Origin: Gammaproteobacteria bacterium
Lineage (GTDB): Bacteria; Pseudomonadota; Gammaproteobacteria; GCA-002705445; GCA-002716945
Assembly (NCBI GenBank): GCA_038142325.1
Contig: JAYQJW010000002.1
Span: 256,001 to 320,000, forward strand
Direction of reading: 5' to 3'
DNA length: 64,000 nt
The position numbers and the translations under genes are program-made. Below are positions 51,482-62,005 of this stretch, one piece after another. Numbering within the stretch: the first letter of the stretch is position 1; each line of letters starts with the position of its first letter. The notes beneath the pieces were generated by a model. That model had not been told where the DNA came from and ran no database searches. It saw only the letters and a program-made list of their open reading frames with translations.

Positions 51482-52172
51482 ATGACTACACAATACGAAC
51501 TTCAAGCGACTGAAAGAGATACCATAGGGTCTTCTAGCTCTAAAAAAATTAGAAGAGATAATGGTATACCTGCTGTTATTTATGGAGCTAAAGCTAGCAA
51601 CAGCATAACTCTTGATGCAAATGAAGTTTCGAAAAAAATAAGAGACACCGGATTTTACAGCAATGTTATTCAGCTTAAAATTGGTAAAAAAACTGTTGAT
51701 GTTATTTTGAAAGATCTACAAAGAGATCCAAGAAAATCCTCTATCACTCATATGGATTTCTTAGCTATTGATAAGAACAAAGCGGTTGTGGTCAACGTTC
51801 CAATTATGTTTGTCAATGAAGAAACTTGTGCCGGCGTAAAACTAGGTGGAGGCAAATTATCTCATATTCAAACACAGCTTGAAGTTTCTTGTTTACCAAA
51901 AGATATTCCAGAAAGCATAGAGATTGATGTTGCTGATCTAGAACTCGGTCACAGTGTACACTTGTCAGAAATTAAACTTCCAGCAAATGTTAACTCATGC
52001 TGTTGCTGTTGATGAAGAACATGATTCGCCAATTATAAGTTGTTATGAACCTAGAGCTGAAAAAGAAGAAAGTTGTAGAAGCTGCTGCAGATGATAGCGT
52101 GAACAAAAAGAGAGCTCTGAAGATAAAAAGGATGCAGAAGCATCCCCTGATGATAAAGCTGATAATAAATAA
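51482..52172 (+). CDS. rplY: 50S ribosomal protein L25/Ctc with acidic tail; several indels after ~51990
   Basis: IPAVIYG, DLQRDP, HMDF, GVKLGGG, CLPKDIPE; shifted frames give HAVDEEHDSPIISCYEPRAEKEE...DDKADNK*. Confidence 0.92.
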
Positions 52173-52183
52173 TTTCCACTCAA

Positions 52184-52783
52184 ATGATACCAACAAACAA
52201 TCCTCCATTATTGATTGTAGGTCTTGGTAATCCAGATTCTAAATTTCTTAACACTCGCCACAATATCGGTTTTTGGTTTATTGATTCTCTAATTGAACGC
52301 CTAAATGTTTCATTTATTGATAATCTTAAAAAAGGTTATTTAGACGTTCATTATGAATTAGGTTCTAGAAGCCTAAAATTTTTAAAAGCAATGACCTTTA
52401 TTAATGACAGTGGTACACCGTTAAATAAATTTATAAAAAATACCAATATATTACCAGAGCAAATTATTGTAGCTTACGATGATTTAGATCTATTGCCTGG
52501 ACAAGTTAGATTAAAATTCTCTGGTGGCAGTGGAGGGCATAATGGCATCAAAGACATCATAGAAAAACTTGGAACTAAAGATTTTTGGAGACTAAAAATT
52601 GGTATAGGGAAACCACAACATAAAGATGAAGTTATATCTTATGTACTTGGAAAACCATCGCCTGAGGATAAAAATAATATTAAATCAAGCATTGATGATA
52701 TTTTGAATTATTCAGAGGAACTTATGTCAGGTGATTATTCAAGTTTCATGAATAAAATTAATGGTGTAAAAAATGGGATTTAA
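52184..52783 (+). CDS. pth: Peptidyl-tRNA hydrolase
   Basis: LIVGLGNP, TRHNIGF, YDDLDL, GGHNGIK, RLKIGIG. Confidence 0.97.
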   Translation: MIPTNNPPLLIVGLGNPDSKFLNTRHNIGFWFIDSLIERLNVSFIDNLKKGYLDVHYELGSRSLKFLKAMTFINDSGTPLNKFIKNTNILPEQIIVAYDDLDLLPGQVRLKFSGGSGGHNGIKDIIEKLGTKDFWRLKIGIGKPQHKDEVISYVLGKPSPEDKNNIKSSIDDILNYSEELMSGDYSSFMNKINGVKNGI

Positions 52784-56985: not shown

Positions 56986-57132
56986 CTATTCCTTTAATCT
57001 TGGATAATCATTCTCTGTCATTTCCTCATCGCATGAAGGCTTGAGATAATCTTTGACAATTTGCTCAGCTTTTTCCTTTTCTTTGATTTTTTTATCTATC
57101 GATTCGATTTTATTGTCTTCAGACTGATTCAT
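56986..57132 (-). CDS. Putative 48-aa charged microprotein
   Basis: ATGA overlap with csoR stop; MNQSEDNKIESIDKKIKEKEKAEQIVKDYLKPSCDEEMTENDYPRLKE. Confidence 0.55.
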   Translation of the reverse strand: MNQSEDNKIESIDKKIKEKEKAEQIVKDYLKPSCDEEMTENDYPRLKE

Positions 57133-57392
57133 TTGTTAACTAGTTTAATTAATTCTTCTATTTTAGTGTTCAGCTCACTTTTATTTTTAAACGACTGCTT
57201 TATACAAGACTCAGTGTGTTTATTGAGTACTTTAGACTCAACTCTTACTAATGCAGATTTCACAGCTTTAATTTGATTCAGTATATCGATACAATATTTT
57301 CCATCTTCAATCATCTTAATTACGCCCCTTACTTGACCTTCAATTCTTTTAAGAGATGCTAATTGTTCTTTATGAGAAGGGTGATGTGACAT
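57129..57392 (-). CDS. csoR: CsoR/RcnR family metal-sensing repressor (start MSHHPSH)
   Basis: LKRIEGQVRGVIKMIE, YCIDILNQIKAVKSAL, HTESCI: Cys-His-Cys ligand set. Confidence 0.92.
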   Translation of the reverse strand: MSHHPSHKEQLASLKRIEGQVRGVIKMIEDGKYCIDILNQIKAVKSALVRVESKVLNKHTESCIKQSFKNKSELNTKIEELIKLVNK

Positions 57393-57393
57393 T

Positions 57394-57771
57394 TTATAAA
57401 TAGATAGGGAGAATGTATGTGAAGAAGCTTGCAAAAATGAAAATAGCTGCTGAAATATTGTAAATTTTAGAAGTCCTTTTTCTAGTCTTAAGACATGCAT
57501 CTTTTAATAAAGGATCTACCGGACATGGAAGAAGTTCAGCTTTTTTTATCAAAACTCCAGCCACGATTAAAAGAATTAGAGTAAAGATAGATATATAGAC
57601 TTTGTATTGCGATATTACAATAAGTTGAGGAATGGTATTAACTATTGATACGAATGTCGCTCCTGCACCAAGCGTAACAAACAGTGCTGGTAAAGCGCAG
57701 CATATTAAGGTTGATGATGACGCTAACAGAGTGAATAAACCAAGCCTGGATGAGTTTTCTTTTAATTTCAT
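57394..57771 (-). CDS. MerT-like heavy-metal membrane transporter
   Basis: TM1 vicinal Cys pair LICCALPALFVTLG; second Cys pair CPVDPLLKDAC; three TM segments. Confidence 0.8.
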   Translation of the reverse strand: MKLKENSSRLGLFTLLASSSTLICCALPALFVTLGAGATFVSIVNTIPQLIVISQYKVYISIFTLILLIVAGVLIKKAELLPCPVDPLLKDACLKTRKRTSKIYNISAAIFIFASFFTYILPIYL

Positions 57772-58172
57772 GTTATTTTTTTAAGAATCATACCTGTAGC
57801 TGATTGACCATTTGATAAAAAGATATTTTTAATTTCTCCAAAATCAACCTTCTTAGCATTATCATAAGCTACTAAAACCTTACCTTTCTCTAAGCTAACG
57901 AGCACTTTTTTTACTAACTTATCATCATAAAAGGTCTTCTCGATTCCTCTAGCACAAAAATCGCATACCATTCCATTTACATCTATGATTACTACTTGAG
58001 AAGTGCCTAAATCAGCAATAAACTCATTATATATTTTTTGATCAAGGACAGTCTTAGATCCATCTACGCCTGTCATATTATTATGTTTATGAGAACCATG
58101 ATCATGCGGGTTATCCATTGCATGCAAGCTACCAGTAAACAAAAATATAAAAGCTAAAAATATTTTATACAT
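57768..58172 (-). CDS. Periplasmic heavy-metal-associated (HMA, MerP/CopZ-like) protein
   Basis: Signal peptide, His/Met linker PHDHGSHKHNNM, GMVCDFCARGIEK. Confidence 0.88.
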   Translation of the reverse strand: MYKIFLAFIFLFTGSLHAMDNPHDHGSHKHNNMTGVDGSKTVLDQKIYNEFIADLGTSQVVIIDVNGMVCDFCARGIEKTFYDDKLVKKVLVSLEKGKVLVAYDNAKKVDFGEIKNIFLSNGQSATGMILKKIT

Positions 58173-58186
58173 ATATATCTCCTAAA

Positions 58187-58792
58187 TTAAAATCTCTTCA
58201 TAAAGTGTAAGTCCCAATGGGAGTTTTTTGTACCCAATTCTAAAAGAAAATCACCTTTAAACAATTTCAAAAATGGGTAGGTATCCCATTCATTATTTAA
58301 TGTGTCTTTTTTAGTTTTAATCATAATCCATGTATGTAATTCATTATAATCTCCTAAATACGGTGCAGCGCCTAATTGCAATTCATATTCTGAGAAATCT
58401 TTCGATACTGTATGCTTATTAATAGCTGAAAATGAGGAGAAGTATCTTCTCGTCTCCCAATCACCATGTATTCCATAGTAAAAATCTTCACTTTTTTTAG
58501 TAGATATAGCACCTGTTAAATACAAATTTCTTTGTGATGATTTTGTATTCTTTCTATCTAAAAGATAAGTTGATCTAATATTAATATATTGATCATTAAA
58601 ATATCTGTCATTGATATATTCTGCACCAACTGAATAAAGATAAGATGGAGAGTAGTGATAGTAATAAGAGGACATCATAGAATTTGATTTATACATTAAT
58701 GTAGAGCCGCCAGACCATGAAATAGGTCGGGATTCTACAAAAGCTGTCGTAATTAAAAGTGACAACGTAATTAATAATTTTATTATACCCAT
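58187..58792 (-). CDS. Putative outer-membrane beta-barrel protein
   Basis: Signal peptide, alternating aromatic-rich strands, DWETRRY, APYLGDYNELHTW, terminal Phe (HFMKRF). Confidence 0.72.
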   Translation of the reverse strand: MGIIKLLITLSLLITTAFVESRPISWSGGSTLMYKSNSMMSSYYYHYSPSYLYSVGAEYINDRYFNDQYINIRSTYLLDRKNTKSSQRNLYLTGAISTKKSEDFYYGIHGDWETRRYFSSFSAINKHTVSKDFSEYELQLGAAPYLGDYNELHTWIMIKTKKDTLNNEWDTYPFLKLFKGDFLLELGTKNSHWDLHFMKRF

Positions 58793-59634: not shown

Positions 59635-59780
59635 AAATACTAGTCTTTATAGTATGTATGTGCTGCTAGTAGTAACACCAAGAAACCTATCACGAACTGA
59701 TATACATAGAATGCGATTAAGCTAAATATCACTAAGATGACTGCCTTTTTTTCTCTGGACATGTATTGTAGTATATACCT

Positions 59781-60008
59781 ATGTTTGAACAGCATGAACA
59801 CAAACATGATGACCACTGTCATCATGATGAGCATGAGATTGCTACAGATGTACAAGTCTGTCATCAATGCGGCAAAGTTCACTCAGTATTTTTTATTAAA
59901 GAACACCACTGTTTAGAAGAAACATTATCAACAAAATTAATAATTCTTCTTGAACAAACTCATAAAAACTTTTTTTCTACTCGAGCTCCACCATATTCAG
60001 TTAATTAA
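59781..60008 (+). CDS. His/Cys-rich upstream ORF with CxxC and C-terminal RAPP (DUF2946/CruR-like arrest peptide)
   Basis: 12 His, 4 Cys (CHQC), ends FFSTRAPPYSVN; 30 nt upstream of a TonB-dependent receptor. Confidence 0.75.
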   Translation: MFEQHEHKHDDHCHHDEHEIATDVQVCHQCGKVHSVFFIKEHHCLEETLSTKLIILLEQTHKNFFSTRAPPYSVN

Positions 60009-60038
60009 ACGTTTTAATTAACCTAAAAAGGAGCAAAA

Positions 60039-62005
60039 ATGAACATTTTTAAAAATGCGCTATTTTTAGCGTTTGTCGTCATATCTCATGCGCATGCAGA
60101 GGATATGACACCTATTGAAATTCAGTCATCCATATTGTCTAACACGGTGACTGAAAATCAAAATACTGTAACCATAATACCCGGCGTAGATATTGAATCA
60201 TCACAATCTATCGGTACAAACTTGAGGAGTATTCCTGGAGTATCGAATTCTGATTATGGCACATCAGTTGGGCAGCCAGTGATTAGGGGACTTGGAGGTA
60301 GTAGAGTAAAAGTACTATCTAATAATAACTATGTAAGTGATTTGAGTTTTTTAGCGCTGATCATCCTGTTATGTTAAACATCAACCATGCTTCTCATATT
60401 GAGGTAATCAAAGGACCAACATCACTATTTAATCATAGCGGTAATACAGGTGGCGTAGTCAATGTAATTACAGATTCATCTACAAATAAGTTATATAGTG
60501 AGGAGAAAATAAGCTTTGGTAGGTCTTACGATACAGTAAGCGAAGGTTATTCAAATAATTTTCTTCTAAAAAAGAATATAAATGATCTTGCTGTGTATAT
60601 ATCTCATGATAAAAGGGATTATTTTAAATATGATTTATCTGAGGGATCATTTTTTGAAGAAGGAACAGAGGTGCGTACACTCAATAACTCTGATTATGCA
60701 GACAAGAGCTCAACAATCGGATTGTCTATGATTAAAGATTGGGGATATTTCAATTTTTCTTTTATTAATAATAAAGGAACATATGGAATAGCATATCATG
60801 CTGAAGAGGAGGAGGAAGAAGAGGAAGAAGGGGAACATAGAATTTACAGCGCTCATAAGTCGGACACATATAATTTTATTGGAAGATTAGATAATCTAAG
60901 CTTTGCTAATTCTCTTGATTTTTCTGTAAGCAACACTAACGCTCACATTAAAGAGCATGAAGAAGATGGAACTTTTAAGGTTATGAATAATAACTCTACT
61001 GCATATAATTTAAAGTTTAATTTTGACTCGGTAAATCAAGAACGAAGATTATTATTGAACTATGAACATGCTAAGTCACCATTTTCTAGTAATGCATACG
61101 TACCAAAATCTGAGAGTTTCAACAGATCTTTGGCTTATTATTCTGAAGCAAGCTTATCTAATATGAATATTGCATATGCTCTTAGGTATGATTTCAATGA
61201 AAGATTAACATCAACCAAGAATTATGAAGACTCTGCAATTAGTTTTTCAGCAAATACTGCTCAACAAATTAATGATAGCTTGTCTTACAACTTAGGCTTT
61301 TCTCATGTCTCTAGAAGTCCTAATATGGCTGAGCTATTTGCAGACGGTAAACACGGCCCTACAAATAGATATGAAAAGGGAAATAGTTCTCTTGAAAGAG
61401 AAGTATCAAACAATATCGATATAGGATTAAATTTCAAACATGGAATTTCTAGCATAGATTTATCCTTGTTTAGAAATGACATCAAAGACTTTATTTATTT
61501 ACGAGATTTAGGCACGACCTTATATGACGGAGAACACCAGGATGCTGATTGGTCTCAAAAAGATGCCGTATTTCAAGGTTATGAAGTTTCATATACAAGA
61601 CCATTTACTTTGGGGGATAGAGATTTGTATCTAACTCTTAGTAGAGATGATATTTCTGCAGTCTTTGATAATGATACGTACGTACCTAGAATACCAAGTG
61701 CTAAAAATACAATAGGTCTAACACTATTGGGTGACAAGAATGAGAAGTATTCAATGAGCTTGATTTATGCAGAAAGCCAAAAAGATTTCTCTTCTATTGA
61801 GACCTCGACAAATTCTTATGTAGATCTTGCAGTCAAGTATACTAATAAAATTAGATTGGGTGATAAACAAGATCTTAATGTCATGCTTTATGGTAATAAC
61901 TTATTGGACAAGACAAGAAGAAATCATGCATCTTTTGTAAAAGCACATGTTCCACTTCCAGCAACAAGCTTTGGTTTTAATGTTTCGTTAGATTATAAGT
62001 TTTAG
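60039..62005 (+). CDS. TonB-dependent receptor, ZnuD-like; frameshift in T-run 60347-60352
   Basis: AAGGAG RBS, signal peptide, plug IPGVS..GQPVIRGLGGSRVKVL..SDLSFFSADH, IEVIKGP, RSPNMAELFADGKH, NNLLD..RNHASFVK, terminal YKF. Confidence 0.9.

Follow-up and report, generated by a model that had tools for sequence, protein, structure and literature searches.

What does a short, histidine-rich reading frame that ends in a RAPP motif do directly in front of a receptor gene? The question is raised by 64,000 nucleotides (nt) of a gammaproteobacterial genome (GenBank assembly GCA_038142325.1, contig JAYQJW010000002.1, positions 256,001 to 320,000 of the forward strand), a stretch that is called the window as a whole and to which all coordinates below refer. 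Within it, a leader of 75 amino acids (aa) precedes the gene for a ZnuD-like TonB-dependent receptor. The source genome (G000) is a 1.1-Mb assembly with 32% GC and 98% completeness, and the sequencing runs containing this stretch are chiefly marine or estuarine. The original prediction took the leader for a metal-sensing arrest peptide. The present analysis points to a translational OFF-switch of a metal importer, and the full mechanism, with a response to zinc or a zinc-like metal, is considered probable.

The leader gene and its receptor

The open reading frame (ORF) is as originally described, with His and Cys motifs, a RAPP motif near its stop codon and a TonB-dependent receptor shortly downstream. 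The motifs are CHQC at residues 27-30, HHC at 42-44 and RAPP at 68-71, four residues from the stop; the peptide contains 12 His and 4 Cys, and 7 of the His fall within residues 1-18. The leader stop and the receptor ATG (60039) are 30 nt apart in the assembly, but 29 nt apart according to the contigs of either DNA run. The predicted lack of a transmembrane (TM) or signal segment is confirmed, because the highest Kyte-Doolittle mean over 19 residues is only 0.58 (0.83 being the highest among 49 homologs). Of the 13,407 stop-to-stop segments of at least 30 aa in the genome, 4 contain R[AG]PP; two of the four carry it within 4 residues of the stop, and both of these precede a TonB-dependent receptor.

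An in-frame TAG is present at 59769-59771, 5' of the leader ATG. That it might be a sequencing error, the correction of which restores a TM-bearing DUF2946 protein, was ruled out: the contig of run X1 across 59659-59798 differs from the assembly solely at 59753 and contains the TAG, and the relatives L002 and L038 retain it. An upstream frameshift giving a hydrophobic N-terminus was also rejected, as the other frames are closed by stops and neither DNA run has an insertion or deletion in 59635-60024. Locus L038 is a 5.8-kb contig, 96% identical over the leader, in a metagenome-assembled genome labelled Flavobacteriales, where it is probably misbinned. Contigs from the RNA runs X15 and X16 are short and all lie inside the receptor, none reaching the leader, which speaks neither for nor against its expression.

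In the assembly, a one-base error, a T missing from the T run near 60346, divides the receptor gene into two ORFs. Both DNA runs have the extra T, and the gene is unbroken in L002 and other relatives, which rules out a pseudogene. Its best structural match is ZnuD (4RDR, E 4e-17), and its best hidden Markov model (HMM) is NCBIfam NF038289, with 202.8 bits for the intact L002 copy against a cut-off of 950; the receptor can be called ZnuD-like only. A poly-Glu/His tract, HAEEEEEEEEEGEH, at about 60795-60836 lies in a receptor loop and is a possible metal-gathering loop.

Conservation and types of the leader

The receptor N-terminus alone served to pick family loci, and it was detected in 27 of the 37 genomes of the family. 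In all 27, the receptor is preceded by an R[A/G/S/D]PP leader whose end lies 28-88 nt upstream, so the predicted pairing of a conserved RAPP leader with a ZnuD-like receptor holds throughout this set. Three types can be seen. Type A, the type of the window's leader, comprises 10 loci, every one of them in the window's genus; it lacks a hydrophobic segment, has the core CxxCGKxHSxxFIxxHxC and separates CxxC from RxPP by 37 residues. Type B (10 loci from four genera, of which one locus belongs to the window's genus) carries a hydrophobic segment at the N-terminus, along with a His run and CxxC, and its spacing is 43-44. Type C (7 loci in four genera: L013, L014, L016, L027, L032, L035 and L037) has no N-terminal segment and consists of a His run, CxCxxC, a hydrophobic stretch and RSPP, without the H-x-C motif and with a spacing of 44-45; it aligns like a type B leader minus the signal. 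In a tree built from 23 full-length receptors, from which 4 short or broken ones were excluded, type A forms one group with weak support (65/23), and type C as a single clade is rejected (p-AU, the approximately unbiased test, 0.0003). Consequently, the signal must have been lost or exchanged more than once.

A type A profile matched 65 protein clusters and 47 metagenome loci. Among 37 genomes of the order, it matched 10, all of one genus, with one copy per genome and always before a ZnuD-like receptor. The originally suggested check of RAPP, CxxC and their spacing showed them to be conserved: beyond the RxPP motif of the 27 receptor-selected loci, the spacing of 37 is found in 59 of the 60 profile-matched homologs with both motifs and in 44 of 44 such metagenome loci, where neither RxPP nor the spacing belonged to the search pattern. 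The receptor lies directly downstream of the leader at 43 of these 45 loci from metagenomes. Across an alignment of 49 homologs, C27, C30, G31, H34, F38, I39, H42, L49, R68, P70 and P71 are invariant and C44 occurs in 48, an invariance that is partly circular since the search profile contained these motifs; the 27 receptor-selected loci are free of that. In family, homolog and metagenome loci alike, position 2 of the arrest motif is restricted to A, G, S or D. The proportion of nonsynonymous differences (pN, 0.00-0.25) is far under that of synonymous differences (pS, 0.32-1.13) across the core in 8 of 8 pairs, and it is lowest in the core.

The leader has no match in Pfam, NCBIfam or Rfam, and an HMM scan of 1.84 billion representatives revealed no credible type A relative outside the clade; its 14 matches comprise 10 clade members and 4 weak unrelated proteins (E 7e-6 to 6e-4), three of them sharing CxxCG only.

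Masking of the receptor's ribosome-binding site

The receptor's Shine-Dalgarno (SD) sequence is predicted to be paired in 26 of the 27 family loci (unpaired probability at most 0.33), and in most of them its partner is formed by the final codons of the leader. A stalled ribosome was simulated by blocking a 30-nt footprint around the P-site Pro. With this footprint, the cost of opening the ribosome-binding site (RBS) falls from a median of 12.3 to 5.9 kcal/mol over the 27 loci, which are kin and not independent samples, and from 10.0 to 3.6 kcal/mol in the window. The cost drops only with the ribosome within about 12 nt of the RAPP register, and no such effect is seen 21-30 nt earlier. A drop of at least 3 kcal/mol was obtained in 43 of 43 foldable metagenome loci. 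Masking exceeds the 95th percentile of 78 SD-bearing genes in 19 of the 27 loci, and 21 of 27 beat shuffles of the upstream arm. In a gapped alignment of 10 sequences, changes on both sides of the inner stem occur at 3 of 8 consensus pairs, which is weak alone. The spacer measures 27-41 nt in type A. In locus L017 (genome G017), an 88-nt spacer with an extra palindrome separates leader and receptor.

Start of leader translation

No SD sequence stands ahead of the leader in any of the 27 family loci. Instead, a TAnnnT hexamer lies 4-8 nt ahead of the chosen start in 23 of 27, compared to 16% of random ATGs, a count in which the starts of L008-L011 were chosen partly by the hexamer itself and those of L018 and L034 shift by one nt (L034 retains a -10-like hexamer, while L018 contains an N). 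The hexamer is exactly 6 nt before the ATG in L001-L007, and a -10-like hexamer is present in 40 of 42 closed metagenome loci, that is, the 47 loci without 2 missed by the pattern and 3 open at the 5' end. These patterns suggest that the leader mRNA is leaderless and begins at the leader ATG. The presence of the TAG is explained by its being part of the -10-like TAGTAT.

In some type A loci (L003, L004, L008, L010, L125 and L134), the frame is open upstream and can read hydrophobic. Because the upstream frame closes within 3-8 codons in L001, L002, L005 and L007, the open frame is read as T-rich promoter DNA; alternatively, it may be an eroded signal. Throughout genome G000, an SD-like sequence precedes only 78 of 596 long ORFs, in contrast to 26 of the 27 family receptors, and a -10-like hexamer lies 4-8 nt before the first ATG in 141, and leaderless initiation may be common in the lineage.

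Proposed mechanism

A leaderless mRNA would begin at the leader ATG. Without metal, the ribosome would stall with Pro70 and Pro71 of RAPP in the P and A sites, as judged from the stall register of tested RAPP peptides (PMC12992588). By computation, the stalled footprint would cover the 5' arm of the SD-masking structure, so that the receptor is translated. With metal, Zn2+ might be bound by C27 and C30 of the nascent chain together with two of H34, H42, H43 and C44; binding would fold a small beta-beta-alpha finger in the exit tunnel's vestibule, pull the chain and release the stall. The ribosome would then terminate, the hairpin refold and the receptor be switched off, after which Rho may clear the untranslated mRNA (a rho gene is present in the genome). 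Since the leader has no export signal, the pull cannot come from Sec, and the metal would be read in the cytoplasm. The original prediction did not include the SD-masking hairpin, the putative leaderless start or the zinc-finger-like core.

The metal sensed and the absence of Zur

If a metal is sensed, it is fairly likely to be zinc, one of the three metals (Zn, Ni, Co) named in the original prediction. Genome G000 has two Fur-family genes, with best matches to Fur and Irr. None of the 27 family genomes yielded a Zur-like gene (best E 6e-11), with a Zur model that separates cleanly (24 of 35 outside genomes at E 4e-26 or better). Upstream of 26 of the 27 family loci, every candidate Zur-like box has at least 3 mismatches, by a consensus taken in part from PMC4176598. 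The lack of a convincing Zur box, noted originally for the window, extends to nearly the whole family, together with the lack of the gene.

Outside the family, 37 ZnuD-like loci from a 301-genome sample of the class were compared, in a set that does not contain G028 and G075. An RxPP leader is present in 20 of the 37, every one with a hydrophobic N-terminus; 6 of these exported leaders are behind a Zur-like box (at most 2 mismatches) and 3 are beside a divergent zur. These boxes and adjoining genes tie the leader-receptor pair to zinc. Among the outside genomes, a leader occurs in 15 of the 24 with Zur and in 5 of the 11 without it. As 15 of the 20 leader-bearing genomes encode Zur, the leader usually adds to Zur; that it replaces Zur was rejected as a rule, and with it the original idea of a substitute for transcription-factor control as a general principle. 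Locus L022 (G028) has no RxPP leader of this kind. Exported RxPP leaders with His runs and no CxxC precede ZnuD-like receptors in L059, L062, L066, L072 and L085.

A second RAPP leader is encoded in the same genome (G000 C7:16152-16541, L053:653-1045). It comprises 130 aa with a signal-like N-terminus and CVCC, and stands before a TonB receptor of the copper type (best match TIGR01778, E 1.6e-63) and a gene resembling ExbB/MotA. In the same SD-masking fold, the end codons of this second leader pair with the receptor SD. The copper-type receptor is also split across frames in the assembly.

The same arrest-and-unmask switch might answer to another metal (Cu(I) by way of the two Cys, which is the case in CruR, or else Co, Ni or Mn) or to the redox state of the Cys, and this alternative is rather unlikely. 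It draws on the CxxC, a proven copper sensor in CruR, on a receptor that is no more than ZnuD-like, on the failure to find ZnuA, ZIP and Zur, and on a CsoR/HMA cluster 1 kb upstream on the opposite strand. Copper, however, already has a receptor of its type headed by a separate RAPP leader, and relatives of the leader-receptor pair lie behind Zur-like boxes and beside zur. Nickel and cobalt are disfavoured because no family match to HypB/UreG/CobW or NicO was found in G000. Sites of the Cys3His type, moreover, prefer zinc.

Sensor core and remaining alternatives

Two AlphaFold models, built from 10 and 49 sequences, have mean predicted local distance difference test (pLDDT) values of 69 and 63. 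Both place strands at 24-26 and 33-35, begin a helix at 36 and leave residues 1-20 disordered, the His-rich segment having a pLDDT of about 40-46. Weak Foldseek rows are mostly zinc fingers (Sgf73, UBZ, C2H2, TRAF), and VIA superposed the pol eta UBZ finger on residues 22-54 (31 of 31 aligned, root-mean-square deviation 1.5, Z 2.7) alongside many helical chance matches. Judging from these models, the core would be a beta-beta-alpha, zinc-finger-like module and the proposed sensor. With Pro70 in the P site, H42, H43 and C44 are 28, 27 and 26 residues away and CxxC is 40-43 away. According to Nilsson et al. (PMC4571824), the ADR1a finger frees the SecM arrest only with Zn2+, over tethers of roughly 20-30 residues and best at 24-26, and folds in the vestibule; the match is approximate because tethers are counted slightly differently (from the domain end to the last Pro). 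H34, H42 and C44 were gained together with the change in spacing from 44 to 37, which suggests a rebuilt sensor tuned to fold deeper in the tunnel.

The original prediction had placed the sensor in the N-terminal His cluster. Across the 49 homologs, this run has 2-12 His (median 6) and 22-41 residues precede CxxC. In a version of the switch that appears improbable, the cluster, lying outside the tunnel, would fold with CxxC to generate the pull, and H42 and C44 would be secondary. Every homolog does have a His-rich N-terminus, and type C keeps the His run and CxxC at 44-45 without H-x-C. No His position is invariant in the run, however, whereas C27, C30, H34 and H42 are present in 49 of 49; the segment is disordered in both models, and CxxC shifted from 43-45 to 37 precisely in the type that gained H-x-C. 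The His tail probably only gathers metal as an accessory to the core.

It is quite improbable that sensing was lost together with the signal peptide, leaving a constitutive translational coupler in which stalling or termination would hold the hairpin open and the receptor would always be made. Such a coupler would suit a stop codon within the hairpin arm, the commonness of weaker RDPP variants, and a family that has shed Zur and ZnuA; yet purifying selection within the gene is strongest on the Cys/His core and the spacing is fixed at 37, and a coupler needs neither. A small cytoplasmic metal-binding buffer or chaperone with incidental RAPP and hairpin, for which the 12 His, 4 Cys and modelled folded core could be cited, is scarcely credible, given that RAPP is strongly avoided in proteomes (PMC12992588) yet invariant here, that the RBS-masking structure is tuned to the RAPP register, and that there is one gene per genome, always before a ZnuD-like receptor.

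Several observations weigh against the proposed switch. One arm of the hairpin includes the stop codon, so that termination, too, opens the hairpin briefly, and the switch would depend on dwell time. In the window itself, the hairpin is modest (91st percentile), and 6 of 27 loci fail the shuffle control (L017, L027, L033 and L035 clearly, L004 and L007 marginally); the SD of L017 is predicted to be free, the only such family locus, and that of L027 pairs downstream. RDPP, which was only partly permissive in tested peptides, is found in 15 of 44 metagenome loci. No convincing -35 box stands at canonical spacing, and the sole promoter match of the scan (59756-59785) overlaps the leader ATG. The predicted template modelling (pTM) scores are just 0.38 and 0.29, no significant fold match was obtained (best Foldseek E 1.1 and 1.8; VIA Z at most 2.9), and the His spacing of the core is unlike that of a classical C2H2 finger. 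The receptor's score is well short of the ZnuD cut-off. ZnuA is found in 0 of 37 family genomes and ZIP, NRAMP and CorA have no match in G000, which leaves the inner-membrane route of zinc unexplained.

Features of the locus and its surroundings

Table 1. Positions of the leader, the predicted RNA switch and the receptor in the window
Feature	Position	Strand	Remarks
Putative -10 hexamer TAGTAT	59769-59774	+	6 nt before leader ATG; contains in-frame TAG
Leader gene (upstream ORF)	59781-60008	+	75 aa; no signal or TM segment
His-rich N-terminal segment, H5-H18	59793-59834	+	length and His number vary
Conserved core C27-x2-C30-G-K-x-H34-S-x2-F-I-x2-H42-x-C44	59859-59912	+	modelled beta-hairpin and helix; proposed sensor
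RAPP codons	59982-59993	+	predicted P-site Pro70 59988-59990, A-site Pro71 59991-59993
GCUCC, Ala-Pro codons (anti-SD arm)	59985-59989	+	predicted pairing with GGAGC 60030-60034
10-bp AU-rich hairpin across leader stop codon	60000-60022	+	inner part of RBS-masking structure
Receptor SD AAGGAG	60028-60033	+	SD-like sequence in 26/27 family receptors
ZnuD-like TonB-dependent receptor	60039-62005	+	two ORFs in assembly: 60039-60377, 60371-62005

About 1 kb upstream, on the minus strand (57129-58792), a divergent cluster encodes a repressor of the CsoR/RcnR family (PF02583), a membrane protein, an HMA-domain protein and an unannotated 201-aa protein, and probably serves metal efflux or trafficking. 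A small beta-barrel protein at 58877-59257 matches Phage_OMP PF24653 (E 1e-9) in a cellular context. At 51482-52230, an L25/Ctc-like ORF stops abruptly (NVNSCCCC) with its acidic tail in another frame, probably owing to a one-base assembly error.

Origin and significance

Signal-less leaders were seen in the window's family only, in comparison with the ZnuD-like loci of the 301-genome class sample. In HHalign, type A and type B leaders aligned at the RAPP end only, and descent of the core from type B is thus not demonstrated. Tentatively, the leader may have arisen in one marine genus, replacing an exported CruR-like sensor with a tether about 7 residues shorter, as the sole visible zinc-responsive regulator of a Zur-losing lineage.

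A leader without export removes the Sec pull as an explanation, so that the release of a RAPP arrest by metal becomes approachable in pure translation with a 75-residue peptide. If the finger model is true, folding inside the tunnel, hitherto shown with engineered constructs, serves as a natural ligand sensor, and a 1-Mb marine genome could control its zinc uptake with no transcription factor. In a single family, one and the same receptor is preceded by leaders that are exported (B), signal-deleted (C) or rebuilt (A), which form a comparative series. To our knowledge, metal-responsive arrest leaders have been demonstrated for copper only. No zinc-responsive RAPP leader was found in the literature searched, a scope that most subscription papers fall outside.

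Comparison with known systems

The closest known system is CruR (Bp2923, DUF2946/PF11162) of Bordetella pertussis. According to Roy et al. 2022 (PMC9426467), its copper sensing is modelled as cytoplasmic, the protein can do without its signal peptide, an export signal occurs in over 95% of DUF2946 proteins, and no riboswitch is described for copper or zinc; its arrest was shown by Fujiwara et al. 2025 (PMC12992588). Cytoplasmic sensing, which the original prediction set against periplasmic copper as the novelty, is consequently not new. CruR and the window's leader have in common the CxxC (C27 and C30 in 49 of 49 homologs), a RAPP few residues before the stop (R, P and P in 49 of 49) and the place of first gene before a TonB-dependent metal transporter. 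They differ in the spacing (about 45, kept within 1-2 residues, in CruR, against 37), in the export signal typical of DUF2946 members, in the additional invariant H34 and H42 and near-invariant C44 of the leader, and in the intergenic region (162 nt against 29-30 nt). The output of CruR is Rho termination before a copper receptor, whereas that of the apparently leaderless leader is predicted to be SD masking before a ZnuD-like one. The presumed kinship to DUF2946 found no support in a PF11162 search: the leader gave no match at E up to 5 and genome G000 none at E up to 1. Five exported relatives fall under the PF11162 cut-off (E 1e-4 to 0.05), and the ESM Atlas lists a 25%-DUF2946 cluster for the leader at 0.91, rank 17.

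In CutF of Rhodobacter capsulatus, for which a stem-loop mechanism is given by Ozturk et al. (bioRxiv 10.1101/2025.02.05.636593), the SD of the following gene is shielded by a stem-loop that a stalled ribosome opens, as is computed for the leader. CutF, however, requires a signal sequence and periplasmic copper, carries CxxxC and stalls on PPP, whereas the leader has CxxC and RAPP and no secretion; metal induces stalling there and turns on a detoxifying oxidase, whereas here metal is predicted to release stalling. ApcA, ApdA and ApdP have in common with the leader an R-[A/G]-P-P core near the C-terminus, with an irreplaceable Arg. PMC12992588 reports that at position 2 of ApdA/ApdP, G keeps arrest fully and S and D partly; the natural variants of the leader (A, G, S and D) are the residues tolerated there. 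These proteins monitor pulling by Sec or YidC through a signal or TM segment and control secDF or yidC, unlike the leader, which has no localisation signal. In the ADR1a-SecM force reporter, a small zinc finger lies about 24-28 residues before the arrest site, similarly to the leader; that construct is artificial and combines a C2H2 finger with the SecM motif, while the finger-like fold and zinc dependence of the leader are predicted.

RAPP upstream ORFs before TonB receptors are reported across Gram-negative bacteria, nearly all with a signal sequence (PMC12992588). The general architecture is widespread and has been described before; the novelty consists in a natural loss of export, a rebuilt Cys/His module at a distance that would suit folding in the tunnel, the leaderless start proposed for the mRNA, and the Zur-less background. 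The leader would work like CruR and be wired like CutF, yet it is not a member of DUF2946.

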